DNA of 64,000 nt. Origin: a virus. Of this stretch, positions 1 through 47,975 are shown one piece after another. Made by a program: the position numbers and the translations under genes. The notes below the pieces were generated by a model, which saw only the letters and a list, made by a program, of their open reading frames with translations, did no database searches and was not told where the DNA came from. The first letter of the stretch is position 1, and each line of letters starts with the position of its first letter. The DNA lies in the IMG/VR virus record IMGVR_UViG_3300033571_014591, positions 4,185 through 68,184 of that record; one strand, given 5' to 3'.

Positions 1-1866
1 TTCAAGCTTGCCGTTCTCGATGTATCCAATGTAACGGCTGCTAATGGTCTGTAGTTCACGGAACTCCAGCACTGACGGGTAGACCCTGTCCTCTGGGTGG
101 CGTCCCATGAGCTTCTTAATGGCCTTCTCGTCTGTAGTGGGCTTCTTCTCATCTCCCTTGCCTACGAAGATAAGGGGATGCTTCTTGGCCTGCTGATACT
201 TGATGATGCCCTTGGTGGAGGGGACAAACCGCCCCATCTTGGCCCACCGCTTCTCTCCCTCTAGTCGTTCGACGGGGTGAGCTCCTGCACAGGGGTTGGA
301 TTCGACCTCTGTGTAGAGTTGCCCTTCACAAGGGTTAGGTGACTTCTTGCTGGCTTTGACGTGGGCTGCTGTCCATTTGGAGCCGCACCGGGTGCACTGT
401 TTGACTGGCTTTGCCTTGAAGTGAGCTTTCTTCGGGGCGCTTTCGTTGCAGGCAGAGCAGTAGATGTTAGTGATTCCATTAAAAGTGACCTCTGTAAGTC
501 CTGACGTGTCCTTAGGGGGCTTCTTGTAGCCCTCTTTGGGAGTAATCGGCTTAATGCTCTGAGGAACCAGTGAATTAATGCGCTCAAGGACTTCAGCTTT
601 CTTCTCTGTGAGCATTTGTGCTGAGTTGAAGCGCATCTTTGCGTCAATCGGCATGCCTGCCCGAGTCATCTCGGCGTAGACTGGGTCCAATTCGAGCACG
701 AATTCCTGGTACACACGGTAAAGGTTGTGCTTCTTCAGTAGCTCAATGGTGCCTCTCAGGTTGGACCCTGCTGAGTCCGCATCGACAGCGTTGTAGAAGG
801 CTGGCTGGGAACCCGACAGGTGCTTCCACATGCGTAGGTTCTTGCGGAACCACGGCGTGACGAAGTTCAGGGACTTCTTCAGGTCACTATTGAGGATGTG
901 CCATGCGTCCATGCCGTCATGGGATGCGCCCCCGATGGTGATACCCTGCGAAATGATGCGTGGTTGGTCATAAGAACCGTTCCACCAGCACTTGGCAGCG
1001 GGATGGTTCAGCAACCGTTCATGAACCAAGCGATAAGGACCATCCCAAGGAATCGAGAGAGCATGTCCATCACGATAAGAATAGCCACACCGCAGAATAA
1101 TGTAGTCGCTATTTGATTCAAGATCCAGCTCGGCCTCGTCAGCATCTTTTCCTGGAGTCTCGATGTCAGCTGAGAGAAATAGGTCAGGATGCGATTCATA
1201 GTATTCCTCGAATTTATTGACCCATTCGTGGGCTTCAGCTGGTGTGCAGTCTAGGGTGTAATCCCCGACTTCGTAGGAGTAGCCGTAACGGGCGTTTTCA
1301 ACAGCACGCTGCAGGCAGAAGATCAATGACTGCGCCCATGCCGTCTGGCCTCGCAGGATGAAGCTTGGGTGCACAGTAGGAGTGACCCAGCAGTTGTACT
1401 TCTCGCTCCAGAAGGTGTAGCCTACGACCCCCTTGCTCTTCTTGGAGTCTAGTAGGCCTACACCGTGCTGATTGGCGATCTCAGGTAGTACACGGTGGAA
1501 TGCCGTAGCGCCTAACGTGACAATGGCCTTGGGTTTCATTTCTGTGATGGCCTTGTCAAGGTTAGGCGAGCAGTGGTTGATAGCGTCCTGCATGTACCAC
1601 ATACCGGCCAGTTTGTTGGCTGGCGGTTGGCAAAACAGGACGTTAGCAACCCTGAACTCTTCACGGTTAAGTCCTCCGCGCTGCAGGAGCTTATCAAGGG
1701 TGAAGCCAGCTTTGCCTACGAAGGGCTTGCCAGCCGCTGCTTCGTCTGCACCGAGGGCTTCACCGATGATAAGAACTCCATTAGAGCCGGTACCGGTCAC
1801 CTCCATGAACCCGGTACCGGAGCTCTGTAGCGCACATCCATTGCACGACGACGGTTTGTTAAGCAA
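1..1866 (-). CDS. polA: Family A DNA polymerase with N-terminal family-4 uracil-DNA glycosylase domain and 3'-5' exonuclease (3'-truncated by window edge)
   Basis: Not in the ORF track; translated by hand from TTG at 1866 (AAGGAG upstream), open to base 1. UDG motifs CNGC, IIGEALG, PFVGKAG, NVLFCQPP, VHPS; exonuclease motifs SADIET, WWNGSYD, YNAVDAD; then AGMPID and PTTDEKAI thumb-region motifs. Confidence 0.9.
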   Translation of the reverse strand, partial: MLNKPSSCNGCALQSSGTGFMEVTGTGSNGVLIIGEALGADEAAAGKPFVGKAGFTLDKLLQRGGLNREEFRVANVLFCQPPANKLAGMWYMQDAINHCSPNLDKAITEMKPKAIVTLGATAFHRVLPEIANQHGVGLLDSKKSKGVVGYTFWSEKYNCWVTPTVHPSFILRGQTAWAQSLIFCLQRAVENARYGYSYEVGDYTLDCTPAEAHEWVNKFEEYYESHPDLFLSADIETPGKDADEAELDLESNSDYIILRCGYSYRDGHALSIPWDGPYRLVHERLLNHPAAKCWWNGSYDQPRIISQGITIGGASHDGMDAWHILNSDLKKSLNFVTPWFRKNLRMWKHLSGSQPAFYNAVDADSAGSNLRGTIELLKKHNLYRVYQEFVLELDPVYAEMTRAGMPIDAKMRFNSAQMLTEKKAEVLERINSLVPQSIKPITPKEGYKKPPKDTSGLTEVTFNGITNIYCSACNESAPKKAHFKAKPVKQCTRCGSKWTAAHVKASKKSPNPCEGQLYTEVESNPCAGAHPVERLEGEKRWAKMGRFVPSTKGIIKYQQAKKHPLIFVGKGDEKKPTTDEKAIKKLMGRHPEDRVYPSVLEFRELQTISSRYIGYIENGKLE

Positions 1867-12613: not shown

Positions 12614-12699
12614 TGGTGCGCCCAGCAGGAGTCGAACCTGCACGACCGTAAGGCCAGCAGATTTTAAGTCTGCAGTGTCTGCCGTTCCACCATGAGCGC
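12614..12699 (-). tRNA. tRNA-Leu(UAA), type II, CCA encoded
   Basis: GCGCTCA/TGGGCGC acceptor stem, TGGTGGAACGG D region, GCAGA-CTTAAAA-TCTGC anticodon arm, long variable arm, GGTTCGACTCC, ACCA end. Confidence 0.95.
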
Positions 12700-13477: not shown

Positions 13478-14716
13478 CTAAAACTGCTTACCGAGGGCTC
13501 GCTCAACCTTGGTAGAACTGTAGTCCCAAGCTTTCCAGTCCTGATGACTGTTGATCGTACAGTTCACCTTGATGCAGCCTTCGTGAATACATTCTTCTAC
13601 AAACACAACACCGTTGACAGTCCTGACATCACGCCCACTTGAGATAGCGTCTGCAAGTTTACTGCCAACTGAAACATTGTGCTTCTTGCTCGCTGGATAA
13701 TACACAGTAGTGTTCTTATCCTTGCTGCCGTTGCTGTGGTAATACCTGGCGTACTCACTGGTGTCAGCAACACTATCTCCCCAGCCAGCATAACGGGCTG
13801 TAGTGTTACTGTGAGACGGCTTGTTTGCCAGTGCATAATTAATGTCCTCATTGAGATCAATAATCAGCTTGGCATTCACGTCAGGGCGCTTCTCAGCTTC
13901 AACCAGCTCAGCTTCCATGCGCTGTACATACAACTCATGCAGATACCGTTCCTGCCCAATAGTCTCGATTGCCTTATGGCAGTGCTCAGTTCTCACAGTC
14001 TCGACAGCGCTATAGTAGTCCACACCGTTAGTGATCATGAACGATGCTAGACATGTACCAGTGCGGCCATGACCGCCCATACAGGCAATCACAGTCTTTG
14101 CAGGCAGCTGCTCCCACAATGATTGCCAGAAGGCCAGACCCACAGGGGGAATACCCATGTCAGTCCAGTAAAGCCTAAGCACCTCAGAGGGCAGCTCACG
14201 CTCCTTGCCCACATACTTACTCAGCTCCTTAAAGCGTGCAGGGGCAGCAGTGGAGATAAACGGCGCAGTATTTGGTACAGACACCACACCGGCAAGATCA
14301 ATAATCAGCTGCCACTTGCCGCTCCACTCATCAAGACTGCTGTTGTTGCTGGCACACAACTGCTTGCCCTGGGATTCAAAGATGACTTTGTCTCCCTTAT
14401 GGCTGCATGACTTATAGCTCGTCGTTGTGCTTGAATATGGGCTGCCAGTAGTCACTGTGCTAGCTACTGTATTAGTGCCATTCTTGATGGCTTCGGGCAA
14501 TGTAATCACTTTGTCTTCTCCATCAACCAGCACCAGCATACCGATGCAACCCTTCTCAGAGCACTGGGATCCGATAAAGTCTGCATCAAACTCATACTCT
14601 TGTTCGCATTCGTCGCAGACAAGAGCGATCTCACCCTCATCTGCCATGTCAGCCAAAAGTGCTGCATTGATTTCGTCAAACTCAGGATTCAGGCTGCTAC
14701 TCTTATGCTTAGCCAA
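13478..14716 (-). CDS. Cys-based (CX5R) protein tyrosine/dual-specificity-type phosphatase with N-terminal zinc ribbon
   Basis: WTDMGIP loop, IACMGGHGRTG, AIETIGQE Q-loop; CDEC...CSEKGC at the N-terminus. Confidence 0.85.
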   Translation of the reverse strand: MAKHKSSSLNPEFDEINAALLADMADEGEIALVCDECEQEYEFDADFIGSQCSEKGCIGMLVLVDGEDKVITLPEAIKNGTNTVASTVTTGSPYSSTTTSYKSCSHKGDKVIFESQGKQLCASNNSSLDEWSGKWQLIIDLAGVVSVPNTAPFISTAAPARFKELSKYVGKERELPSEVLRLYWTDMGIPPVGLAFWQSLWEQLPAKTVIACMGGHGRTGTCLASFMITNGVDYYSAVETVRTEHCHKAIETIGQERYLHELYVQRMEAELVEAEKRPDVNAKLIIDLNEDINYALANKPSHSNTTARYAGWGDSVADTSEYARYYHSNGSKDKNTTVYYPASKKHNVSVGSKLADAISSGRDVRTVNGVVFVEECIHEGCIKVNCTINSHQDWKAWDYSSTKVERALGKQF

Positions 14717-24637: not shown

Positions 24638-24821
24638 GGTAGACGAAGCCGTATTCAAACGCATTATGCAGCTTAAAGCTCTTGGCCTCACCGACAAGGT
24701 CATCTCCATCCGCCTTGGCGTTTCAGAGCGCACCATCAGGGTCTACACCCGAGCGGCTAAAACCGGCTTAAAGCCCTACGAGGCACCTTCAGCAGATGTA
24801 TCATCCAACGGTATCGAGTAA
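24627..24821 (+). CDS. Small HTH DNA-binding protein
   Basis: GLTDKVISIRLGVSERTIR; GAGGA RBS. Confidence 0.7.
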   Translation: MAAKVDEAVFKRIMQLKALGLTDKVISIRLGVSERTIRVYTRAAKTGLKPYEAPSADVSSNGIE

Positions 24822-26064
24822 GCGGCTCGACAATCTAGCCTCAGCCATCCGCAAAACAAGCGACCCGGCCTTCCAGTTCATCGATCTCCCCGTAGATCGA
24901 CGCGAAGGCATGATTGCACGCCTCAATTCCATCTGGAACGCCGAAGAGGGCACCCTCAAGCGCCCTTTGGGACTGGACGAAGAGGCCTTCATTCGCCATG
25001 AAATCAACCGCTGCAAGGGCGACTTCTACTATTGGCTTACGTCTTACTGCAAAATTAAGTCAAAAAACGCCGAACTCGTCAAAGTCAAGCCAACTCACGT
25101 CCAGGATCTCTTCCTGCAGCGCATTGGAGAGGTCGAAAAGGCCTCAGTCTTCGACAAATCCGGCGACGGCATCCTCTTCGCGGTCCTCAAGGCTCGTCAG
25201 CTGGGCGTTTCCACCATCTCAGAGTGCATTATTTCGCACCGGATCGTCTTCTACGGCTCCATCGCGGCCCTAATCGCCTCTGACGTCGATGACCACACCA
25301 TTAACCTCTACGAAATGGTCATCAGAGTCCTCGAAAACCTCCCGTGGTGGATGGTTCCGCGCTCGACTGACCCCAAAAAGGACTACCGGGCCAAAAACCA
25401 GCTGATCTCCTTCTACGATCAGGACTCAATCATCAGATTTGGCTCTGGCAAGAACATGCAGGGCTCAAAGTTCCAGGAAAAGGGCTCAATCGGCACCGGC
25501 CAGACCCTCCATCAAGTCCACATTTCTGAGTTTGCCCTCTGGGCCAACGCCGAACAGATCTACGACTCACTGCTCCCTGCTGTGCCCATGAGTTCCAAGA
25601 CCTTTCTGGTGCTTGAATCAACCGCCAAGGGGCGCAACAACGAGTGGCACAAGACCTGGGAGCGAGCCAAGCGTGGTTTAGGCCGCCTTAAGCCCATTTT
25701 CTTCCCTTACTACACTGATCCCAACGACTACCGCCTGCCAGCACCCGTTGATTGGGTTCCATTAGCCCACACTGTCAACCATGCTGAGCGTGTAGCTGCC
25801 ACATCTCACAAATGGGTGGGGAAAACAGTCATTCTCACCCGCGAACAGATGTTTTGGTACGAGCAAACCTATGCCCAATACAAGGACTCACGTATGCTCT
25901 ATAAATTCCTTGCCGAATACTGCGCCGACGACCTTGAAGCCTTCCAGGCGTCCTCCCAGGGCGTCTTTCCTGCCGAACTCATCGATGATATTCGCCAAAA
26001 GGTCACCAAAGACCCGGTCCTCATCGATATTCGCCCAAAAATGTACCGTGAGGTCGGTCAATGA
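24796..26064 (+). CDS. terL: Terminase large subunit, ATPase domain
   Basis: VLKARQLGVST Walker A, VHISEFA Walker B, LESTA coupling motif, FFPYY, EY..D..EAF. Confidence 0.9.
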   Translation: MYHPTVSSKRLDNLASAIRKTSDPAFQFIDLPVDRREGMIARLNSIWNAEEGTLKRPLGLDEEAFIRHEINRCKGDFYYWLTSYCKIKSKNAELVKVKPTHVQDLFLQRIGEVEKASVFDKSGDGILFAVLKARQLGVSTISECIISHRIVFYGSIAALIASDVDDHTINLYEMVIRVLENLPWWMVPRSTDPKKDYRAKNQLISFYDQDSIIRFGSGKNMQGSKFQEKGSIGTGQTLHQVHISEFALWANAEQIYDSLLPAVPMSSKTFLVLESTAKGRNNEWHKTWERAKRGLGRLKPIFFPYYTDPNDYRLPAPVDWVPLAHTVNHAERVAATSHKWVGKTVILTREQMFWYEQTYAQYKDSRMLYKFLAEYCADDLEAFQASSQGVFPAELIDDIRQKVTKDPVLIDIRPKMYREVGQ

Positions 26065-26921
26065 GCTTAACTGCCCTTGAAAAGCTGAAAAACGCCAACC
26101 TCGGTGTCCAAATGAAGGTCATCGAGGCCTCTTCCTACGATTGGGAGGCCTGGAACGGGCGATTACTCTGTTTTGAGCCCCCTGAACCCGGAGAAATCTA
26201 CGCCCTCGGTGTAGACCCCGCAGAAGGCGTCAGAATGGATCGTTCTGTCTGCCAAGTCATCAAAATGGGCAACCTCAAGCACCCAGACGTCCAAGTTGCC
26301 GAGTTTGCCTGCGATTACCTCGATCCGGTTGACTTTGGGGCAGTTGTTGATGCCATTGGACGCTTCTACTGCGACCCAGACGGTACAGAGGCCTTCCTGA
26401 CACTCGAAATCAACGCCCCCTGCGGCGATACCATGATGAGCGACCTTAGGTTCCGCCTCGACTACGGAAACCTTTACATTCGTCGTAGTTATGATAGAGT
26501 TAACTCTACCTATACCAACACATACGGCTGGAGCACCAATAAAGCCTCAAGGCCCAAATTAATCGCCAGAGGCCTTCATGCTTTAACCTACGGGGACTTA
26601 ATTATCAACTCCCCCTATCTGCTCGATGAAATGTCGGACTTCCGCCGTGACCGCTTTGACGAAAAGCCCGAAGCACGTGTTGGTCGCCATGATGACCGTC
26701 TTATGGCTCTACTCATCGCCTACTACGGGGCGCACGACGACGAATGGATCTCAGGCGAAGACATCGGAGAACAACGCCGAGCCGCAGAGAAGGCCGGTCA
26801 GGTTATTGAAGTGAAAGCAGCTGTAGCTGAGCCGGGGCGCAAGGTCAGCTATCAGAATCGACCCATTACAGCTCGTCAGGCCAACCAGGAATGGGAAGAT
26901 AACTTTTTCGGCGCAGATTAA
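26061..26921 (+). CDS. Terminase large subunit, nuclease domain (separate ORF)
   Basis: YALGVDPAEG, DRS, LEIN, GWST, HDDRLMA; ATGA overlap with its own GAGG RBS. Confidence 0.9.
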   Translation: MSLTALEKLKNANLGVQMKVIEASSYDWEAWNGRLLCFEPPEPGEIYALGVDPAEGVRMDRSVCQVIKMGNLKHPDVQVAEFACDYLDPVDFGAVVDAIGRFYCDPDGTEAFLTLEINAPCGDTMMSDLRFRLDYGNLYIRRSYDRVNSTYTNTYGWSTNKASRPKLIARGLHALTYGDLIINSPYLLDEMSDFRRDRFDEKPEARVGRHDDRLMALLIAYYGAHDDEWISGEDIGEQRRAAEKAGQVIEVKAAVAEPGRKVSYQNRPITARQANQEWEDNFFGAD

Positions 26922-35315: not shown

Positions 35316-35996
35316 ATGTCTGGTGTGATTGGGATTTCTACTGCTGAATCTGGCCGCTTCTCTATCTTCTACGCAGCCCTTGAGGGTCTTCAGATGCCCG
35401 ATGAACCTGTGCAGAAGGTCTTTGCCCGGTCAGCTCAAATCTCAGAGAACCGTAATGCCATCACCAAACATGCCCTCGACGCTGGAGCCGATTGGGTACT
35501 CTACCTGGACGACGACCATATCCTTAGCGGCGACGTCCTACTGCGTCTCCTTGCAACAGGTAAGGACGTAGTCTCAGCCCACTACGTGAGACGTCAGCCC
35601 CCTTTCGGTACATGTGCCATGGGTGTAGAGCTTCCCTCAGGAGCCTTCATGTGGAAAACCTTGGAGCCTGCCGAAACAGGCCTCGTCTCAGTTGCTGCTG
35701 CTGGTGCAGGTTGCCTGTTGGTTCGCCGTGCAGCCCTTGAAGCCCTAGACCCGCCCTACTGGACCCTCGGACAGATCCACCCCTCATCATGGGGAGACGA
35801 TTTGGACTTCTGCCGCCGACTGCGCCGGAAGGGTTTTGAAGTCTTCGTTGACCTTGATAACCCTATCGGGCACATGATGACGGGCACTGTATGGCCCTCT
35901 AATAGCCCCAAGCAGGGCTGGATTGCCAACTTCGCCCAAGACCCGACTCAACCCATTTTAGCTCAGTGGCCTATGCCCCTGCCCGGAGACATTTAA
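35316..35996 (+). CDS. GT-A fold glycosyltransferase (GT2-like)
   Basis: RN, DWVLYLDDDH, GAGCLLVRR, GDDLDFC, GH. Confidence 0.85.
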   Translation: MSGVIGISTAESGRFSIFYAALEGLQMPDEPVQKVFARSAQISENRNAITKHALDAGADWVLYLDDDHILSGDVLLRLLATGKDVVSAHYVRRQPPFGTCAMGVELPSGAFMWKTLEPAETGLVSVAAAGAGCLLVRRAALEALDPPYWTLGQIHPSSWGDDLDFCRRLRRKGFEVFVDLDNPIGHMMTGTVWPSNSPKQGWIANFAQDPTQPILAQWPMPLPGDI

Positions 35997-38866: not shown

Positions 38867-39763
38867 ATGAAGACCAGCATTATCATTCCTGCGCGAAATG
38901 AGCAATTCCTGGTCCCCACTGTAGCTGATGTCCTGTCCAAGGCGCGGGGCGACATCGAAGTTATTGCTGTGCTCGACGGGTATTGGCCTAATCCCATGCC
39001 AGCAGATCACCCAAACCTACGACTCCTCCACGTAGCTCCCGCTCGGGGCATGCGCCCAGGCATTACCGCAGCTGCACGTATGGCCACAGGAGACTTCATT
39101 ATGAAGCTCGACGGCCACTGTATGGTCGCTGAGGGCTTCGATGAGCAGCTCAAGGCGGATTATCTGGAAGACGACTGGATCCTGACGCCGCGCCGGTATC
39201 CACTGGATGCCGAGAACTGGACTATCGAAGAAGGCAACCCCAAGTACCCCATCGATTACGAATATCTCTCCTACCCGTTTGAGCGGCTCGATGACCCCAC
39301 CTGCGGGTTGCACGGCACGTTCTGGACTGCCCGTCGAGACGCCCGTAAGGACATCATGCTGGACGAGGACATGAGTTCACAGGGCTCCTGCTGGTTTATG
39401 TCCCGGTCAAATTGGGAGCGCATTACTCCCCTCAGGGTAGACCTCTTCGGGAACTTCTACGGGGAATCCCAGGAGATCGGGCTGCAGACCCAAATGCGCG
39501 GTGGTGCCATGATGCGGACCAAGAACACCTGGTACGCCCACCTGCGTAAGGGCAAGAAGTACGGGCGCGGCTACGCACTTGGAGCAGAGGGTCACCGCCG
39601 TGGAGCCTACGCCATGCTCCGTATGTGCATGCTCAACGAGTGGCCGGGGCAGACAAAAACCCTGCAGTCTCTTGTTGAACGGTTCATGCCAGTCCCTGGC
39701 TGGCCAGCTGATCTCGATAAATGTTTTGCAGAAGCGAAGGCGAGGATTTCCGGTGCCGTCTAA
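38867..39763 (+). CDS. Glycosyltransferase, GT-A fold, ppGalNAc-T-like
   Basis: SIIIPARNE, KLDGHC (DxH), GSCWFM, GESQEIG...GG...AHLRK. Confidence 0.85.
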   Translation: MKTSIIIPARNEQFLVPTVADVLSKARGDIEVIAVLDGYWPNPMPADHPNLRLLHVAPARGMRPGITAAARMATGDFIMKLDGHCMVAEGFDEQLKADYLEDDWILTPRRYPLDAENWTIEEGNPKYPIDYEYLSYPFERLDDPTCGLHGTFWTARRDARKDIMLDEDMSSQGSCWFMSRSNWERITPLRVDLFGNFYGESQEIGLQTQMRGGAMMRTKNTWYAHLRKGKKYGRGYALGAEGHRRGAYAMLRMCMLNEWPGQTKTLQSLVERFMPVPGWPADLDKCFAEAKARISGAV

Positions 39764-40358
39764 TACACTTCAGGCGTGGCTCGATGCTCAGAATATTGCC
39801 CTTCCCGATGACCCTCTCGGTGTGCGGCTGCCCATTTCACGCTGGGAACACCTCCCTGCGCTGTTTGCCCACATGGGCTTCACACACGGAGCCGAAGTAG
39901 GCGTCGAGCAGGGACGCTACAGTCAGCGCCTCTGTGAACGGATCCCTAACCTCAAGCTTCTGGCTGTAGACGCATGGCTGGCTTACGGCGGCTACCGTGA
40001 CCATGTGTCGCAGGAGAAGCTAGACGGCTTCTATGCAGACACAGTTAACCGCTTAGCCCCGTATGACCCTGACATTCGCCGTGGCCTCAGTGTCAATGTG
40101 GCTTCGACCATCCCTAACGGCTCGCTGGACTTTGTCTACATTGACGGCAACCACACCCTACCCTACGTCATTGCAGACATTGCTGCGTGGGCACCAAAGG
40201 TCCGCAAGGGCGGCATTGTCGCAGGGCATGACTACGGCAGGCGTTCAGTAGGGCACGTTGCGGAGGGGGTTCAGGCATGGACAGCTGCATACGACATTAG
40301 CCCCTGGTACATCTGCACAGGAGACAAATCTCCCTCATGGTTCTGGGAGGTCAAGTAA
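39753..40358 (+). CDS. Class I SAM-dependent methyltransferase (Methyltransf_24-like)
   Basis: GAEVGV..G.YS, VDAW, DFVYIDGNH, GGIVAGHDY; GTG at 39753 with GAGGA. Confidence 0.88.
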   Translation: MPSNTLQAWLDAQNIALPDDPLGVRLPISRWEHLPALFAHMGFTHGAEVGVEQGRYSQRLCERIPNLKLLAVDAWLAYGGYRDHVSQEKLDGFYADTVNRLAPYDPDIRRGLSVNVASTIPNGSLDFVYIDGNHTLPYVIADIAAWAPKVRKGGIVAGHDYGRRSVGHVAEGVQAWTAAYDISPWYICTGDKSPSWFWEVK

Positions 40359-42079
40359 TGGCCGACCTCTCTGTGCTGATTCCTGCTCGAAACGAGCAGT
40401 GGCTATCTAAGACCATTGAAGACGTGCTCTCTAACATGAGAGGCGATACAGAAATCATCGCTGTGCTTGACGGAGCATGGGCAGATCCGCCTATTGCAGA
40501 CCACCCGAAGGTTACACTCATCTATCTGTCTCAGCCCATTGGGCAGCGAGCGGCGACCAACTTAGCTGCACGGCTCTCCACAGCCAAGTACATCATGAAG
40601 CTGGATGCCCACTGCGCTGTTGCAGAGGGGTTTGACCTTGAGCTCATCCGGGCTGCCGAAGAGCTTGGCCCACAGACCACACAGATCCCTGCCCAGACCA
40701 ACCTGCACGTCTATGACCGGGTATGCCAATCCTGCGGCAAACGGAGCTATCAGGGGCCACAACAGAACCCCTGTGACCACTGCGGTGGCCCATGCACAAT
40801 TGAAGTCGTCTGGAGGCCTCGGAGGGGCACCAAGACCACAAATTGGACCTTTTCCCCTGAGCCCAAGTTTCAATACGGCGGCACCGCCCAGGGCAGCAGT
40901 GACATCGAAGACGTCATGTCCTCACTGGGTGCCTGCTTCTTCATGGAGCGGGAGTTCTTTCATAACATCGGAGGACTGGACGAGCGGCACGGCTCTTGGG
41001 GGTCGTTTGGTATTGAGATTGCCTGTAAGACCTGGCTCTCAGGAGGCCGTCACGTGGTCAACAAGCGCACGTGGTTTTCACACTTCTTCCGCGTTGGTGG
41101 TATTGGGTTTCCCTACCCCATCTCCGGGGCCGAACAGGAACGTGCACGGACCTACTCCAAGAACATCTGGTTCCGCAACCAGTGGCCCCTGCAGAAGCAC
41201 CAACTCCTCTGGCTGGTTGATAAGTTCTGGCCCATCAAGGGCTGGACTGACGAAGACCGGGACCGCCTCATTAACATGGCAAACGGTGCCGATGAGCAGC
41301 CAGCCGACTCTGATGCCCACAACACCGCTGTGCCCTCTGCTGTAAATGTTCCTGCCCTACCCGTAGCAAAATCCACAGCAGGCATCCTCTACTACACAGA
41401 CGGCAACCTGGACAACACAGTTGTAGGCGATGCCGTGCGTAGTCAACTCGCTACCATCGGGCTACCTATCACAGCGGTCTCTATCAAGCCCTTGGGGTTT
41501 GGCGACCAGCGTATTGTGTTGCCGCTTGAACGGGGATACCTCACCATGTTCAAGCAGATCTTGGCAGGACTTGAGGCCATGGATACCGATATTGTCTTCT
41601 TCTGTGAACATGACGTGCTCTATCACCCGTCCCACTTTGACTTCGTTCCCCCTGACCGCGAGCAGTATCACTACAACCTGCACGTGTGGAAAGTGGACGC
41701 TACCTCTGGGCGTGCTGTCCACTACCTCACCAAGCAGACATCAGGCCTCTGCGCCTACCGGGACATCCTTATTGAGCATTACCGGGAGCGAGTAGCCCGA
41801 GTCGAGCGCGATGGATTCAGCCGCCGTATGGGGTTTGAACCTGGCTCCCATCGTCGGGCCGAACGAGTAGATGACCGCACCTCAGCTACCTGGATGTCCT
41901 CGGGCGCTAACCTTGACATCAGGCATGACCGCAACCTCACCCAAACCCGCTGGAGTCCTACACAGTTCCGCGACCAGCGCAATTGCCAAGGCTGGACAGA
42001 GGCAGACGAAGTACCCGGCTGGGGTCTCGTCAAGGGCCGCATTGAAGAGATCCTCACAGCAGTGGGTGCCCGTGTATGA
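40358..42079 (+). CDS. Two-domain glycosyltransferase (ppGalNAc-T-like domain with zinc-ribbon insert plus second GT-A domain)
   Basis: KLDAHC, CQSC..CDHC, GGLDE..GSWG..GIEIA.K.WLSGG...SHFFR; second domain VFFCEHDVLY. Confidence 0.85.
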   Translation: MADLSVLIPARNEQWLSKTIEDVLSNMRGDTEIIAVLDGAWADPPIADHPKVTLIYLSQPIGQRAATNLAARLSTAKYIMKLDAHCAVAEGFDLELIRAAEELGPQTTQIPAQTNLHVYDRVCQSCGKRSYQGPQQNPCDHCGGPCTIEVVWRPRRGTKTTNWTFSPEPKFQYGGTAQGSSDIEDVMSSLGACFFMEREFFHNIGGLDERHGSWGSFGIEIACKTWLSGGRHVVNKRTWFSHFFRVGGIGFPYPISGAEQERARTYSKNIWFRNQWPLQKHQLLWLVDKFWPIKGWTDEDRDRLINMANGADEQPADSDAHNTAVPSAVNVPALPVAKSTAGILYYTDGNLDNTVVGDAVRSQLATIGLPITAVSIKPLGFGDQRIVLPLERGYLTMFKQILAGLEAMDTDIVFFCEHDVLYHPSHFDFVPPDREQYHYNLHVWKVDATSGRAVHYLTKQTSGLCAYRDILIEHYRERVARVERDGFSRRMGFEPGSHRRAERVDDRTSATWMSSGANLDIRHDRNLTQTRWSPTQFRDQRNCQGWTEADEVPGWGLVKGRIEEILTAVGARV

Positions 42080-42459
42080 GCCGTAAAGCCCTGCGTATGC
42101 TCTATGCTACGCTCCCGACTATTAACTGCAAGGGACTATGCTACCAAGAGTGCCAACACCCGGTTGCAGCGTGGCCTATTGAGCGGCGTGAAATGGAACG
42201 TACAACGGGTAAGCCCTATGTGTATCACACAGTAGAGCATCGATGCACTTATTTAAATGCAGCCCGTCAATGTGAAGCTCATGATGTGCGCCCTTATGTC
42301 TGCCGCGCTTACGGTACTGCAGATACCATGCGCTGTGCGTTTGGCTGTGAAACTACCGAGGGCACTTATCTGACTGACGCGCAAGCAGCAGATGACTTCA
42401 GAACATTAGACCAGTTGAGTGGGAATCGTACCATGCAGAAGCCCAAGGCAGTACGCTAA
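42076..42459 (+). CDS. YkgJ/FliB-like Cys-cluster protein
   Basis: CKGLCYQEC, CTYL....CEAHDVRPYVCRAYG. Confidence 0.8.
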   Translation: MSRKALRMLYATLPTINCKGLCYQECQHPVAAWPIERREMERTTGKPYVYHTVEHRCTYLNAARQCEAHDVRPYVCRAYGTADTMRCAFGCETTEGTYLTDAQAADDFRTLDQLSGNRTMQKPKAVR

Positions 42460-43943
42460 TGGCGATTAGTTCTACACCTGTCCAGTCGAAGATAGTCGCG
42501 GCTTCAAGTTCATCCAGTATCACGCTTGACTCGACACCGACTCAGGGTAACGTCCTAATCCTGTTTGAACGGCAGGGCAACGGTAATACCGTCAACCAGA
42601 ATCCTTTGACCGCTGTGACGCAAACAGGCGTGACGTGGACATTGGTAGTACAGCAGGTCGCTCAGAATAACGTCGTCGGTATCTGGTACGGCATTGTTGG
42701 CGCAAGCCCAAGCGCCACAATCAATTTCACTTTCACCAGTCCAGGTAACATCAATAGTGTTGCTACCTCGGTGGGAGAGTGGTCTGGTATCGATACGACG
42801 TCCCCTGTAGAAGCATCCAGAGCTGACCAAAACGGTAGCAGCACTTCTGCGACAACAGGAAGCATTTCAACTACAGCAGCCGCGGAACGTCTAATTGTTG
42901 CAGCCAATCGCAATATCAGTTTAACAACGACCTGCGACACCGCTGGGTTTGCAGAAGTAGTCACAGGCAGTCAAAACGCAGTCTATTTGAGAGCTGCCTC
43001 TGCCGCAAGTAGTTACACAGTTACTTGGACACTAAGCACGAAGGAGCGCTGGGTTACTGCCATTGCTGCATTTAAACCTTCTCTGGGCTCTCCCTCGGTT
43101 TCGCCCTCGGCGTCACAAAGCCCTAGCAGTTCGGTTAGCCCCAGTGTAAGCCCGTCAGCGTCAGTATCTCCTTCTGCGAGCCTTAGTCCATCATCGAGTG
43201 TATCCGCGTCAGTGTCGCCAAGCTCGTCTGTGAGCCCCTCGTCTAGTGCATCAGCTAGTGTAAGTCCATCTGCATCAGTTAGCCCTAGCAGCTCGAATTC
43301 TCCTTCGGTCTCACCATCCGCATCGGTATCACCATCGTCAAGCGTATCGCCGTCAGTTTCTCCGAGTGCATCAGTCAGTCCTAGCAGTTCAGCCAGTGCC
43401 TCCGTCTCGCCCTCCGCGAGCGTAAGCCCTAGTTCATCCGCGTCGGCATCTGTATCACCTAGCGCCAGCGTCAGTCCGTCATCGAGCATTTCGCCGTCGA
43501 TTTCGCCCTCGGCGTCAACATCGCCGTCAGCCTCAGTGAGTCCCTCTCCAGGGTCAACACAGTCAGCCTACCCGGTCTCTGACATTGCGGCAGGCGGATG
43601 GACCCCCTCGACGGGCACTGATCTCTTCGCCATGGTGGACGAGCCAAATGTCCCCAACGACAGTGACTGGATTAACTCCCCCTCAACCACAGGGGATTTA
43701 ACCGTTGAGCTTCGCCAGGGCACTACGTTAATCGCTACTCGTACCCAAGCAGCACCAACGTCTTACACCACCTACATCTTTACTCTCACAGGGGGCGAAG
43801 TGGCAACGATCACCAATTGGAGCAACCTGGCTGTGTGGCTTTCAGTTAATGGTACAGCTATCGCCAAACTGCAGCTGGGGACACTGTCCACCCCTGTTGA
43901 TGCCTCCGGGACCAAGCTTTACATCAGGATGACGTCAGTATAA
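42459..43943 (+). CDS. Ser/Pro-repeat (mucin-like) virion protein 1
   Basis: Beta-rich N-domain, about 150 aa of [11 protein letters not shown] repeats, then a C-domain. Confidence 0.85.
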
Positions 43944-46057
43944 TGCCAGCTACACGTACTGCAAAAGGCACAGCAGCGTCAAAGAATCAAGCTGCCGGGG
44001 CGTGGTCTCCTGCTTCATTGTCTTCAGTCACCATAGCTAATGGTGCCTCAATTATTGTAGGTGTAGCCAGTCTTGGTAATAACAACGTCACAGCTGTGTC
44101 TTGGAACGGCCAAGCACTAGCAAAGAAGACTGGATCAGGGTTCTATACAGCTATATGGGCTCTGCACAACGTCACCGGAGCTACCGGGCAGGTCACGATT
44201 ACGCAAGCTACTGGAGGTACTGGCTGGAACCTAGCAGCCTTCGTAATTCAAGTTACAGGCCTTGCAACCTCACCAGATGACAAATCCGCAGGGCCAGTAA
44301 CAGGCACGTCAACTGCTCCGTCTTCCGGTGCCACCGCAACTACCGCCCAGAATGATGAATTTCTGGTCGGATGTATCACAACCCAAGGGCCAGACGGCGA
44401 CACACTCAATACTGGCTGGAGCAACGGATTTAGCACTGGACAGGCACTCGGCACAACAGGTGCGTCGGCTGCATCAAACACCAAGGTGTGGGAAGGTTAT
44501 AATACTGTATCCACAACAGGGACTTATACTGCAGCAGCCACCCTGACAACATCGCGTGACTGGGGTGCAGTCATTGCTACGTTTAAGATTGCTGCAGCTG
44601 GTTCACCTTCGGTTAGCCCAAGCAGCTCGGCCTCAGCCTCGGTGTCGCCCTCGGCATCTGTATCGCCTTCAAGCAGTGCTTCCGCATCAATTAGTCCAAG
44701 TTCGTCGGTGTCACCATCGGTGTCGCCGTCAGCTTCGGTCAGTCCGAGTAGTTCTGCGTCTGCATCTGTTAGCCCTTCGTCAAGTGCATCTCGGTCAGTC
44801 AGCCCTTCGGCATCTGTCAGTCCCAGCTCGTCTGCCAGTGCTAGTGTCAGTCCATCGGCATCTGTTAGTCCATCGAGTTCGGTCAGTGCTAGCGTATCGC
44901 CAAGTGCGTCAGTTAGTCCGTCAAGCTCTGCCAGTGCATCTGTATCTCCCAGTGCGTCGGTATCACCATCGGCATCGGTAAGCCCTAGCTCCTCAGCTTC
45001 AGCATCCATTTCGCCCAGCTCTAGTGCCAGCCCGTCAATTGCTCCCTTTGTGGTGCGGGTATCGTGGGTTCGCCTGGAGACAGGCAATGGCACGTCGCCC
45101 TCTGCGTCGGTGTCACCGTCCAGCTCAGTATCGCCTTCGGTGTCGCCTTCGGCGTCGGTGAGTCCATCGAGCAGTGCTAGTGCGTCAACTTCGCCATCAT
45201 CAAGTGTTAGCCCGTCAAGCTCAGTAAGCCCATCGGTTAGCCCGTCAGCTAGCGTATCTCCGAGTAGTTCGGCCAGCCCTTCGGTTAGCCCGAGCGCATC
45301 TGTTAGCCCAAGCTCAAGTGCAAGCCGCTCAGTAAGTCCATCGGCTTCAGTATCGCCGTCGTCAAGCGCGTCGGCCAGTGTGAGTCCCTCGGCGTCAGTG
45401 AGTCCCAGCTCATCAGCTTCGGCTTCGGTCTCACCCAGTGCGTCGGTAAGCCCATCAAGTAGCGTCTCTGCATCGGTCTCCCCGTCTGCCAGTGTGAGTC
45501 CGTCCAGCAGTGCTTCGGCTTCAGTATCTCCGAGTGCCAGCACTTCACCCTCATCAAGTGTGTCGGCATCAGTATCACCATCGGCCTCAGTCAGTCCGTC
45601 TAGTAGTGCAAGCCGATCAGTCAGCCCTTCTGCTTCAGTAAGTCCATCGTCGTCGGCTTCAGCCTCGGTTAGCCCGTCGAGTTCAACTAGTCCGTCCTCC
45701 TCGGCTAGCGCATCGACTTCCCCGTCTGCTTCACAGAGCCCATCGAGCAGCACGTCTCCTAGTGTTTCTCCAAGTGCATCTGTAAGCCCGAGTGCTTCGC
45801 TATCGACAAGTATTTCGCCCTCGTCGTCAGTAAGCCCGTCGAGTTCAGCGAGTGCCAGTGCTTCGCCCTCAAGCTCAGCGAGCGCTTCAGTATCTCCGTC
45901 AGCATCGACCAGCCCGTCAAGTAGCGTCTCACCGAGCGTGTCACCCTCGGCTTCACAGAGTCCCAGCTCTTCGCCTAGCTCCTCTGCGTCAGCTAGCCCG
46001 TCCCCCTCACCCAGTGTCAACAGGGGTAGCCTGCTCCTGCTGGGTGTCGGCATCTAA
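43943..46057 (+). CDS. Ser/Pro-repeat (mucin-like) virion protein 2
   Basis: N-domain similar to protein 1, two long SPSASV tracts, C-terminal LLLLGVG motif. Confidence 0.85.
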
Positions 46058-46085
46058 TTCCTATCAGACAGGAGATAATTATTTG

Positions 46086-46574
46086 ATGAAACCTGAGCTA
46101 CAACCCGGAGATTGCCTTCTCTACAGCCCCGCCCCCAAGTCTGTCTTTGGATGGCTGATTGCCATTAAAACTTGGCACGCCGTGTCGCACTGCGAAGTTT
46201 ACATCGGAGAGGGCATGAGTGTAGCCAGTCGGGACGGGAAGGGTGTCGATAGCTACCCAGTAAGGTGGGATAACCTCTCCATCATCATGAGGCCTAAGGG
46301 GGAGTATAAGTTTAACCTGCAGGCAGCCTTAAAGTGGTTCATCACTGAAGCCAAGGGGCAGAAATATGACTGGGTTGGGCTGCTGCGTTTTAGCTGGCGG
46401 TCGGACTTTGTGAAGGGCGGGGAGAATAACAAGCAGTTCTGCAGTGAGTTCGCCACCAGGTTCTACCGAGCTGGGGGACTTGACCCCTTCAACGGAGAAG
46501 ACGCCGATGCAGTGCCGCCCTATTTATTCAGTATCTCTCCGGTGTTTAGCCGGGTGCCTTTGAAGGAGGCCTAG
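46086..46574 (+). CDS. Permuted papain-like NlpC/P60 (YiiX/YebB-like) enzyme
   Basis: LQPGD.LL, SH...YIG, G.KYD, FCSEF. Confidence 0.85.
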   Translation: MKPELQPGDCLLYSPAPKSVFGWLIAIKTWHAVSHCEVYIGEGMSVASRDGKGVDSYPVRWDNLSIIMRPKGEYKFNLQAALKWFITEAKGQKYDWVGLLRFSWRSDFVKGGENNKQFCSEFATRFYRAGGLDPFNGEDADAVPPYLFSISPVFSRVPLKEA

Positions 46575-46688
46575 ATGTGGAAGTCAGTTGGCAAGTGGGC
46601 AATTAAGTTAGCCGTTTTTGCTTTTAATCACCGTGACGAGCTGATCGCAGCCGTTGACGCCGTGGAAGCCGCAAAGAAGAACAAATAA
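46575..46688 (+). CDS. 37-aa amphipathic peptide
   Basis: GGAGG RBS; MWKSVGKWAIKLAVFAF... Confidence 0.5.
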   Translation: MWKSVGKWAIKLAVFAFNHRDELIAAVDAVEAAKKNK

Positions 46689-46694
46689 GCTCTC

Positions 46695-47975
46695 ATGAAG
46701 GCTAAGACATTAGTTGTTGCAGCCCTATCAGGCACTGGAGTTCAGACTGTTACAGGAGTAACCGATAGTACAGGTGCGCCTTTCACTGGAGAGGCGTTCC
46801 TGATTTACGGCAACTCAGCTGCAGACACCTTGGCAACCTTCTGCCGTGCCTCTTACGGCATGGACGATTTGGTATCACCCCGTGGTATGGCATTTGACGA
46901 GACCAACGAGTTCGGGGGCAAGATTGTTTCTTCGGGGGCAGGCAATAAGTCTATCCTTGACGAGCGAGGATCTGTGTTCTTCGGCGGGGCTATTGAGAGG
47001 CAAGCTTACATTAGTGCATCCCGCTCTGGTGAGTTCGATATTACCTATACAGTCAATAACCGCACCGGAGACAGCTTTATTGTTACTGTGCTAGGCGGGG
47101 ATGATCTTCAGGCCAAGATTGGAGTAAATCCCACATCTGAAGTGTATACCGTTGGGTTTGCACCCGAAGCGGTTATTGGCCACCAGCAGGTAAATGGGGG
47201 CAGCTCTCCTGCTACCTCAGGGGGCGGCGGTAGTTCCTACGGGTGGGCAACTAAGTCCAGCGGCATGGGCACGTCTGCTATTGCTATCGTTCCTCAGGGG
47301 GGCAATGCCCGGTACCAGGTAAGCACCCTTTCAGGTGCTGTGCTTGATCAGGCATCTCTAGGATCTGTTTCTGTCTCTGGCACAGTCACAGATTTTGGCT
47401 CTGATAGCTTTACACTTTCTGGGGCGTCCTTTGGCGGATCCTATGCATATTTAGCTGTCGGAGGAGGAATTCTTGCTCGGGCAGGAATTATTACTCAGCC
47501 TCTTACTGCAGGGTCTGTAGAGGTTATCACCGGCATTACCAACAGGCTCGTCCTGCTGATGAGCGTAGGGTCGACAACGTCTACAGCTGTACAAACCGAT
47601 AGGGCGACATTAAGCCTTGGTTCTTATGACGGTATCAGTGCCGCTGTTCATCTTGTGGGAGACGCGACCGTTGGCAACCCTGCCAGCACAGGATTTCGCT
47701 ACTTAAGCACATCTGATGTGGGCCTTATGGCTACCCCAAACGGGGGCAGTACAGCGCTGACAACTAAAGTCCAGGGCAGCGGATTCTCTGAAACTAACTC
47801 GTCTTTTACCTTGAACTTCTCAGACGTAGACGGGGCTGCTGTTGAATGGTACTGGCTGGCCCTTGGAGAGACTCCTGCCCCTCCCCCGCCGCCAATTCCT
47901 GGGTGTGTGCCGTTTTTGTCCAATAATGCGCCGGTGACGACTGCAAGTTGTATCCCCGGAATTCCTAGAACTTAA
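46695..47975 (+). CDS. Putative tail-associated protein (three repeated beta modules)
   Basis: Recurring G-F-x-P ... F-T-L ... YLA-G modules; Pro-rich tail. Confidence 0.65.
   Translation: MKAKTLVVAALSGTGVQTVTGVTDSTGAPFTGEAFLIYGNSAADTLATFCRASYGMDDLVSPRGMAFDETNEFGGKIVSSGAGNKSILDERGSVFFGGAIERQAYISASRSGEFDITYTVNNRTGDSFIVTVLGGDDLQAKIGVNPTSEVYTVGFAPEAVIGHQQVNGGSSPATSGGGGSSYGWATKSSGMGTSAIAIVPQGGNARYQVSTLSGAVLDQASLGSVSVSGTVTDFGSDSFTLSGASFGGSYAYLAVGGGILARAGIITQPLTAGSVEVITGITNRLVLLMSVGSTTSTAVQTDRATLSLGSYDGISAAVHLVGDATVGNPASTGFRYLSTSDVGLMATPNGGSTALTTKVQGSGFSETNSSFTLNFSDVDGAAVEWYWLALGETPAPPPPPIPGCVPFLSNNAPVTTASCIPGIPRT

Follow-up and report, generated by a model that had tools for sequence, protein, structure and literature searches.

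We describe a putative glycosylation cassette at positions 38867-46057 of a 64,000-nucleotide stretch of viral DNA, henceforth the window, which corresponds to bases 4185-68184 of IMG/VR record IMGVR_UViG_3300033571_014591. The record comprises 68,184 bp, carries direct terminal repeats and has a completeness rating of 100%. As claimed in a preliminary description of this DNA, the locus is one tightly coupled run of genes: six + strand genes are found within 38867-46057, and neighbours overlap by 1 to 185 nt. Three of them encode enzymes, namely two glycosyltransferases (GTs), denoted GT_A and GT_B, and a methyltransferase. A small Cys-rich protein and two proteins with long Ser-X arrays, denoted E and F, follow. 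The constituent features are:

38867-39763, + strand: GT_A, 298 aa, a soluble GT-A glycosyltransferase with a DxH motif (LDGHC); PF00535 at 6e-10.
39579-40358, + strand: S-adenosylmethionine-dependent methyltransferase (Methyltransf_24), 259 aa from a TTG start; PF13578 at 5e-13, residues 106-219.
40337-42079, + strand: GT_B as a whole, 580 aa, two domains.
40337-41329, + strand: GT_B N-domain, a GT-A glycosyltransferase with a DxH motif (LDAHC); PF00535 at 3e-14.
41330-42079, + strand: GT_B C-domain, a second, probably GT-A-like domain, as suggested by neighbours of its ESM Atlas model.
42076-42459, + strand: small Cys-rich protein, 127 aa, an orphan; sub-threshold match to PF03692.
42459-43943, + strand: protein E, 494 aa, with an N-domain of ~205 aa (42459-43073), an array (about 43074-43583) and a C-domain of ~120 aa (43584-43940).
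43943-46057, + strand: protein F, 704 aa, with an N-domain of ~228 aa, a Ser-X/Pro array (44627-46012) and a 13-residue hydrophobic tail.

The first functional component of the cassette is the pair of DxH domains. GT_A and the N-domain of GT_B match PF00535 with 39.7 and 53.8 bits, respectively (gathering cut-off 23.3), as do 46 of 46 relatives of GT_B. Both domains are paralogous: GT_A shares 37% identity with residues 11-309 of GT_B (E = 5e-43). The motifs quoted in the preliminary description, LDGHC, LDAHC and GGLDERHGSWGSFGIEIACKTWLSGG...SHFFR, are present in the translations, and its proposal that the DxH enzymes resemble family GT27 is borne out by searches against the PDB. GT_B alone retrieves polypeptide GalNAc-transferases (ppGalNAc-Ts) exclusively, with a best E-value of 6.7e-6. 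A profile built from 46 GT_B relatives has ppGalNAc-Ts as its top 15 of 19 matches (E-values from 7.5e-13 to 1.2e-7), and both halves of their catalytic domain align with it. Likewise, a profile of 23 GT_A relatives gives a continuous ppGalNAc-T alignment over positions 2-253 of 275 (E = 2.3e-11); ppGalNAc-Ts make up 15 of its 22 matches, in addition to chain 8uhv. This chain is found among the matches of both profiles beyond the named ppGalNAc-Ts, and it occurs in a paper on a Toxoplasma O-glycosyltransferase. Generic GT2 chains align with the DxH profiles over the first 83-107 positions only, that is, with the nucleotide-binding half. Judged by these alignments, the nearest solved relatives of both DxH domains are GT27 polypeptide GalNAc-transferases, not GT2 enzymes.

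The similarity extends to individual residues. In animal ppGalNAc-Ts, the D-x-H motif and a later His are Mn ligands, whereas the Glu residues form part of the Gal/GalNAc-T motif; the second-half motif of GT27 is defined as WGGENxE...CGG, with the later His in H-x-F-R. The corresponding residues D82-x-H84 of GT_A and D90-x-H92 of GT_B align with DAHC/DSHC of the ppGalNAc-Ts, and H225 of GT_A and H249 of GT_B with the animal His in H-x-F-R. The Gal/GalNAc-T motif region of GT_B aligns with ppGalNAc-Ts only (domain E-value 1.4e-5), with GG, W221-G222 and E227 conserved, and GT_A keeps both motif Glu residues (E200, E203). Across 46 GT_B sequences the residues D45, D90, H92, C130, C133, C149, W221, G222, E227, H249, F251 and R252 are invariant; across 23 GT_A sequences D82, H84, E200 and H225 never vary and E203 almost never does. 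The N-domain of GT_B additionally contains an inserted zinc-ribbon-like loop with four Cys residues (C130, C133, C146, C149; about 40724-40783). Animal GT27 enzymes typically possess a C-terminal ricin-type lectin domain and a type II membrane anchor. A Pfam search found no ricin-type lectin domain in the DxH enzymes, and no transmembrane (TM) helix is predicted in GT_A or GT_B (maximum 19-residue hydropathy 0.95 and 1.32, respectively), nor is a membrane helix predicted in any cassette enzyme, in E or in F.

In some relatives a GT_A-like domain is fused to a two-domain GT_B, resulting in three GT domains per chain (for example, L008:10001-12582). These fused proteins comprise 806-884 aa (806-851 aa in P0002-P0009). 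In other relatives, such as L024, L038 and L224, the domain order is reversed, with the C-domain preceding the N-domain.

The second component consists of the arrays. Hundreds of repeat residues in two proteins had been described beforehand, and they are indeed found: the array of E comprises about 170 residues (206-378) with 90 Ser, of which 76 have another Ser two residues on, and the array of F about 460 residues (229-690) with 254 Ser, of which 220 do. The non-Ser positions are mostly Pro, Ala and Val. In F, 19 non-repeat residues (366-384; 45038-45094) split the array into two blocks. All six Ser codons are used (59 TCN and 31 AGY codons in E, 156 TCN and 98 AGY codons in F), DNA-level repeats are almost absent (Tandem Repeats Finder gives three short rows), and amino-acid entropy is lowest in the + frame, at 2.04 bits versus 2.88 for the open reverse frame. 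The periodicity is therefore held at the protein level in the + frame. A reverse-strand open reading frame (ORF) at 44524-46053 was considered as a gene and rejected, the higher entropy marking it as a shadow of the repeat. A Pro at -1, +1 or +3 accompanies 70 of the 88 serines counted in the array of E; in F, the figure is 179 of 254. These are the positions favoured by animal ppGalNAc-Ts, a match that is to be read as a resemblance, not a test.

Outside the arrays, the N-domain of E belongs to a family with 360 cluster representatives (E ≤ 1e-3) that has no assigned name, no Pfam match and a weak match to PixA (E = 0.0019). Arrays are rare in this family: they occur in 4 of 152 proteins examined, the other 148 being without, and some relatives have membrane-anchor-like tails at the C-terminus. 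The N-domain of F aligns weakly with that of E (E = 0.004; 24% identity within the alignment). For the C-domain of E the ESM Atlas returned nothing informative (best score 0.86). A terminal beta domain had also been attributed to F; this does not hold, since F has no C-terminal domain and ends in its 13-residue tail. Short hydrophobic tails of this kind also follow arrays in L016, L018 and L176. The sequences end in ...RMTSV (E) and ...LGVGI (F), without an LPXTG anchor, and no signal peptide is predicted in either protein. NCBIfam yields weak matches to a 'serine-rich protein' model and to SdrC. As a protein query, the repeat region matched more than 593 stretches, of which tblastn confirmed 3 only.

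The association of enzymes and arrays was evaluated in two sets of loci. The viral set consists of 44 IMG/VR loci with a GT_B relative. The second set consists of the best 80 loci, from 98 candidates that encoded a GT_B relative, in species-representative genomes; all are contigs of metagenome-assembled genomes (MAGs) from many phyla, and many of the 80 are Patescibacteria. Under a strict criterion, an array is an ORF with at least 30 Ser-x-Ser pairs. Two separate DxH domains are present in 27 of the 44 viral loci and the C-domain in 30; relatives of the methyltransferase are found in 31 viral and 58 of the 80 MAG loci. A tblastn search of the viral loci (E 1e-4) detected no relatives of E, F, the Cys-rich protein or the structural genes of this phage; the cassette therefore moves between unrelated phages.

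In accordance with the co-occurrence of DxH GTs and repeat genes that had been anticipated, strict arrays are found in 32 of the 44 viral loci and 47 of the 80 MAG loci (37 of 57 among those of at least 12 kb). Looser Ser-/Thr-rich criteria add six viral loci, for a total of 38 of 44; the remaining six are four fragments of 4-8 kb, L026 (13 kb) and L046 (22 kb). Almost all array ORFs (105 of 106) are encoded on the GT strand, in the MAG loci without exception. The median gap between an array and the nearest GT or methyltransferase gene in the viral loci is 50 nt, and the gap is 500 nt or less in 22 of 32. By a looser measure, Ser/Thr arrays occur in 85 of 124 loci. Thr-rich arrays are limited to loci without a directly fused C-domain (9 of 46 versus 0 of 39 fused, a count that ignores relatedness). 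Clustering of the array proteins by their non-repeat parts gives many unrelated groups, none of which resembles E or F. Since the carriers are otherwise unrelated, it is the repeat, and not a protein family, that travels with the enzymes.

Sampling in the reverse direction gives a corresponding result. Eighty loci were chosen by a degenerate SPSxSxSPS DNA pattern, most of them chance matches. Five of these loci have arrays of at least 80 pairs, and four of the five contain the cassette, compared with 0 of the 75 others (Fisher p = 3e-6). L113, which is among these four, and L014 are one and the same contig. Relatives of GT_B are abundant in metagenomes, with more than 4,034 at E ≤ 1e-5. In contrast, neither GT_A nor GT_B has a match in 50,697 GenBank phage records, and a search of an open-access literature collection turned up neither this cassette nor phage proteins with Ser-X arrays.

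We further note a recurrent module of ~45 residues after the arrays, with the pattern RP..K.GT.GFN..T..LE.W.G..W. The module is found at the C-terminus in L005, L011, L187, L195, L200, L211, L217, L218, L220, L243 and L252, and could act as a small domain for binding or anchoring at the terminus.

A sister phage, G001, allows for a direct comparison. Its genome is complete (70,714 bp) and syntenic throughout, with 83% identity of the capsid and 69% of the portal protein. In G001, GT_B finds no match and no ORF reaches 15 Ser-x-Ser pairs. The region 38867-47975 of the window has no counterpart, and other genes occupy the site: synteny is lost beyond residue 55 of the upstream protein and restarts at the tail fibre. 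As G001 lacks both at the replaced block, enzymes and arrays were gained or lost together, in a variable host-recognition region.

The C-domain of GT_B contains an invariant E-H-D motif (E424, H425, D426), and E93, D95, Y98 and H102 are invariant in its alignment (A3). It has no Pfam match, and its PDB sequence search is not significant (best E-value 0.013, an unrelated protein). In the ESM Atlas, the GT_B model (pLDDT 0.81) has viral 'glycosyltransferase family' and GT2 clusters as neighbours, with query-based TM scores of 0.59-0.87; further neighbours of the C-domain are bacterial fusions of Methyltransf_24, GT2 and C-domain from Bacteroidota, Myxococcota and Acidobacteriota. As to the earlier designation of GT_B as a double GT, the N-domain has its PF00535 match; the C-domain looks GT-like only through the Atlas neighbours, which are a lead, not proof. 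The existence of GT_A-GT_B fusions and of the bacterial three-part fusions ties the enzymes to one pathway.

The start of the methyltransferase is uncertain and lies either at TTG 39579, with a 185-nt overlap with GT_A, or at GTG 39822. In L004 and L005 the tblastn similarity extends back to query residues 15-25, inside the overlap, which may reflect a real overlapping start or an other-frame echo of GT_A conservation. As a single sequence the methyltransferase retrieves nothing in the PDB. The small protein at 42076-42459 had been called YkgJ-like, which is not supported: its match to PF03692 reaches 20.6 bits (E = 7e-4) against a cut-off of 23, tblastn finds no match in the 44 viral or 80 MAG loci, and a search of 5.8 billion proteins returned the protein itself alone. 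On this evidence the Cys-rich protein is outside the conserved module.

With respect to its genomic setting, the cassette is located between the capsid/adaptor genes and the tail fibre gene, that is, within the structural module. The window encodes terminase pieces, a portal protein, a major head protein, a P22-like portal domain, two SU10-type adaptor proteins and a tail fibre (PHROG match). The closest deposited capsids, those of Tunturiibacter and Myxococcus phages, show 26-28% identity, and we therefore consider the virus a novel podovirus-like phage. A motif scan of the region found promoter- and terminator-like sites no more often than in shuffled sequence. Among the sequencing runs listed as containing this DNA there is no RNA run, but solely the probable source sample. 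Nucleotide-sugar genes were not detected elsewhere in the genome by Pfam (11 families among 51 other window ORFs); the sugar donor, if any, must therefore be host-cytoplasmic. Downstream of F, the block exchanged in G001 extends over two further genes:

46089-46574, + strand: papain-like permuted enzyme, YaeF/NlpC-P60-like; NCBIfam NF008552 at 1e-7.
46695-47975, + strand: 426-aa protein, function not assigned, at the end of the replaced block.

Several features of the wider genome are recorded here as side observations. The large terminase is apparently split into overlapping + strand ORFs (24796-26064 and 26061-26921), both of which match terminase-large-subunit PHROGs; the two pieces are also separate matches in G001. 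The replication module contains an open-ended ORF (window 1-1866, - strand) whose product, at least 622 aa long, has a domain of the uracil-DNA-glycosylase superfamily, a tRNA-Leu(TAA) (12614-12699, - strand) and a 412-aa protein with a thymidylate-synthase-like stretch (13478-14716, - strand). A third GT-A-like glycosyltransferase is encoded inside the head module (35316-35996, + strand; phrog_12406 at 1e-5) and is probably the source of the Pfam matches to Glyco_tranf_2_3 and Anp1. It is kept at 55% in the sister phage, whose copy has a DDD motif. Since it is retained there in a genome that has neither cassette nor arrays, this enzyme serves another purpose. As queries, this gene product and the capsid protein returned just 2 loci each, too few relatives to serve as a control.

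The position of E and F within the structural module leads to the question of whether they are part of the virion. PHROG and Pfam were applied to 67 non-repeat segments of related array proteins. The functional names assigned by PHROG are minor tail (7), virion structural (5), tail (2) and amidase (1); Pfam adds one tail tube domain (PF18906) and three ConA-like lectin domains. Ten candidate array proteins were tried as the carrier of this Phage_tube_2 domain, and none matched. Gene position and the repeat-bearing proteins of related loci point to E and F as putative virion proteins.

The system is not confined to phages, as large MAG contigs carry it among cellular genes. Five loci on contigs of 318-744 kb (L207, L252, L247, L216 and L195) contain the cassette with arrays in such surroundings, so that phage encoding, regarded in the preliminary description as a defining trait, no longer qualifies as one. 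These five loci have 12 GT2 and 9 Methyltransf_24 matches, with TatC, undecaprenyl-diphosphate synthase, RmlD and an epimerase nearby and few phage genes. Array proteins in these five loci reach 2,705 aa. In the cellular loci they have no obvious signal peptides, and some begin with an E-like domain. The loci may represent a cellular surface-glycoprotein system or unrecognised prophages.

Taken together, we think that the block probably serves protein O-glycosylation and is expressed along with the late structural genes, and the comparison of loci gives good support to cytoplasmic O-glycosylation of serine-repeat fibres. We infer from the material above what accepts the glycan, which sugar is used, in what order the enzymes act, what is methylated and that E and F reside in the virion. 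GT_A and the N-domain of GT_B, with their DxH...H metal site, would transfer sugars from host nucleotide-sugars to the serine hydroxyls of the arrays in E and F; the pair would start, and perhaps densify, glycosylation in the cytoplasm, before or during assembly. A cytoplasmic modification with host donors fits the enzymes, which have no membrane segment, as well as the genome, in which no nucleotide-sugar genes were detected. The C-domain of GT_B would then extend the glycan, and the Methyltransf_24 enzyme would O-methylate, and thereby cap, a sugar. Densely covered with glycans, the arrays would become extended bottle-brush stalks that resist proteases, borne by fibre-like virion proteins whose genes lie in the host-recognition region, and these stalks could project the terminal domain of E or coat the particle.

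A number of observations weigh against an O-glycosylation module. Regarding the enzymes, the first Glu of the animal WGGENxE motif is missing from GT_B, and the Gal/GalNAc-T motif model PF02709 stays below its cut-off (E = 0.071; 13.2 bits versus 23), with 0 of 46 relatives at E ≤ 0.01. Full GT27 membership is weakened by this shortfall, by the lack of a lectin domain and membrane anchor and by the four-Cys insert in GT_B. The methyltransferase matches phrog_2675 (4.5e-17), which is labelled 'DNA methyltransferase'. Regarding the arrays, a strict array is missing in 12 of the 44 viral and 33 of the 80 MAG loci. Some of these are full-length (L046, L212 and L235), and the enzymes can therefore occur without a nearby array. 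Conversely, L050, L051 and L121 bear arrays without the cassette, in records that are only 7-13% complete. The loci are moreover interrelated, such that the counts do not represent independent events. Finally, E and F match no structural family in PHROG or Pfam, and the bacterial fusions together with the RmlD, epimerase and undecaprenyl neighbourhoods would also fit polysaccharide synthesis.

The last point leads to an alternative that we consider unlikely, namely that the enzymes modify another acceptor, such as a polysaccharide or lipid of the host envelope, in the context of serotype conversion or exclusion, with the arrays being unmodified linkers. GT2-type enzymes and methyltransferases are common in polysaccharide loci, and the three-part bacterial fusions, the sugar-nucleotide and undecaprenyl genes of the cellular neighbourhoods and the loci devoid of strict arrays are all in line with such a role. 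However, it leaves unexplained why arrays on unrelated proteins are found beside the cassette and why both are jointly absent from the sister phage. The enzymes are also soluble, without a TM segment, and their nearest solved relatives act on polypeptides.

It is improbable, too, that enzymes and arrays form a functional unit while E and F are not virion parts but glycosylated proteins that are non-structural or released, such as a mucin-like matrix or decoy produced in the course of infection, or a cell-surface coat of the kind suggested by the cellular loci. The missing matches to structural families, the array-bearing cassettes among cellular genes on the large MAG contigs and the anchor-like tails of some relatives of the E N-domain would agree with this possibility. 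Yet E and F have neither signal peptide nor TM segment, their genes lie inside the late structural run, flanked by the tail fibre gene and by a gene whose product keeps its N-terminus in the sister phage, and those relatives of other array proteins that have a functional name are tail or virion proteins.

A modification of the phage DNA itself is highly improbable. Hypermodification of DNA by the GTs and the methyltransferase would account for the PHROG label of the methyltransferase family and could be connected with the thymidylate-synthase-like gene at 13478-14716; DNA glycosylation in phages is established (bioRxiv 10.1101/2023.12.21.572611; PMC12619734). However, the cassette resides in the structural operon and not in the replication module, the thymidylate-synthase-like gene is also present in the sister phage (42% identity), where the cassette is missing, and the association with arrays is left unexplained. 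That the repeats are non-coding or encoded on the other strand, with the Ser-repeat proteins as ORF artefacts, can practically be dismissed: reverse ORFs are also open at 44524-46053 (509 aa) and 43013-43489 (158 aa), but the use of both Ser codon boxes with hardly any DNA repeat, the low entropy of the + frame, the in-frame continuity of the arrays with non-repeat domains, one of them from the 360-member family, and the shared strand of arrays and GTs in other loci all speak for the annotated frame.

A protein O-glycosylation module invites comparison with three known systems. The first is the serine-rich repeat proteins (SRRPs) of Gram-positive bacteria, such as GspB, Fap1, PsrP and SraP, which are glycosylated by the GT-B pair GtfA/GtfB and accessory GTs, exported via SecA2/SecY2 and attached by an LPXTG anchor. 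Similar to the locus described here, SRRP systems combine a Ser-X dipeptide stalk of hundreds of residues with genes for several GTs alongside, and glycosylation is cytoplasmic. In contrast to SRRP loci, neither PF00534 nor a Sec family is among the Pfam matches of the cassette and the 51 other window ORFs, and there is no LPXTG motif; the enzymes here are GT-A enzymes with DxH, the arrays are punctuated by Pro, and the carrier is a phage. The second system is eukaryotic mucin-type O-glycosylation by GT27, a family whose members transfer GalNAc from UDP-GalNAc to polypeptide Ser/Thr with retention. It is the system with which the DxH, the later His and the W-G/E residues align and in which Ser/Pro-rich tandem repeats would likewise be the acceptors. 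The animal enzymes differ by their lectin domain and membrane anchor and by acting in the Golgi, whereas here neither element was detected, the site would be the cytoplasm, and GT_B has its four-Cys insert. The module thus works like SRRP systems and is enzymatically nearest to animal mucin glycosylation, but is a member of neither.

The third system is the glycosylation of mycobacteriophage virions, reportedly treated by Freeman et al. in Cell Host Microbe in 2023. To our knowledge, phage virion glycosylation has so far been documented for mycobacteriophages only, with short acceptor tails. Other papers describe phage-encoded glycosyltransferases, in some clusters with a methyltransferase, and glycans on phage structural proteins (PMC12619734, PMC13313380, PMC11256854). 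As far as these descriptions go, both cases share phage-encoded GTs and a methyltransferase near the structural genes as well as a modification that must occur in the infected cell. The mycobacteriophage glycans are described there on the C-termini of capsid and tail-tube subunits, whereas arrays are found here in E and F only and extend over hundreds of residues; an array protein of one related locus does carry a tail-tube domain (PF18906). The enzymes are not detectably related, given the lack of any GT_A or GT_B match among the GenBank phage records, and glycosylation is here deduced and not measured.

A more far-reaching proposition concerns the origin of the enzymes. The soluble DxH enzymes might form a large sister group of eukaryotic GT27 with prokaryotic and viral members, in which case mucin-type initiation on Ser/Pro tandem repeats would not be a eukaryotic invention, and uncultured phages and Patescibacteria-like cells would make genuine mucin-like bottle-brush fibres. 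We regard this as quite improbable at present. If true, adsorption could run in reverse, the phage contributing the sugar and the host surface the lectin.

The module points to a much wider, unrecognised practice of glycosylation among phages. If the arrays are glycosylated, the co-occurrence translates into an annotation rule, by which a DxH GT pair together with Methyltransf_24 predicts nearby Ser-X array proteins. Soluble cytoplasmic relatives of ppGalNAc-Ts with a simple repetitive acceptor would also be handy for enzymology and glyco-engineering. For the phages themselves, glycosylated arrays would mean that many environmental phages have mucin-like fibres, which bears on adsorption, stability, protease resistance and recognition by lectins.

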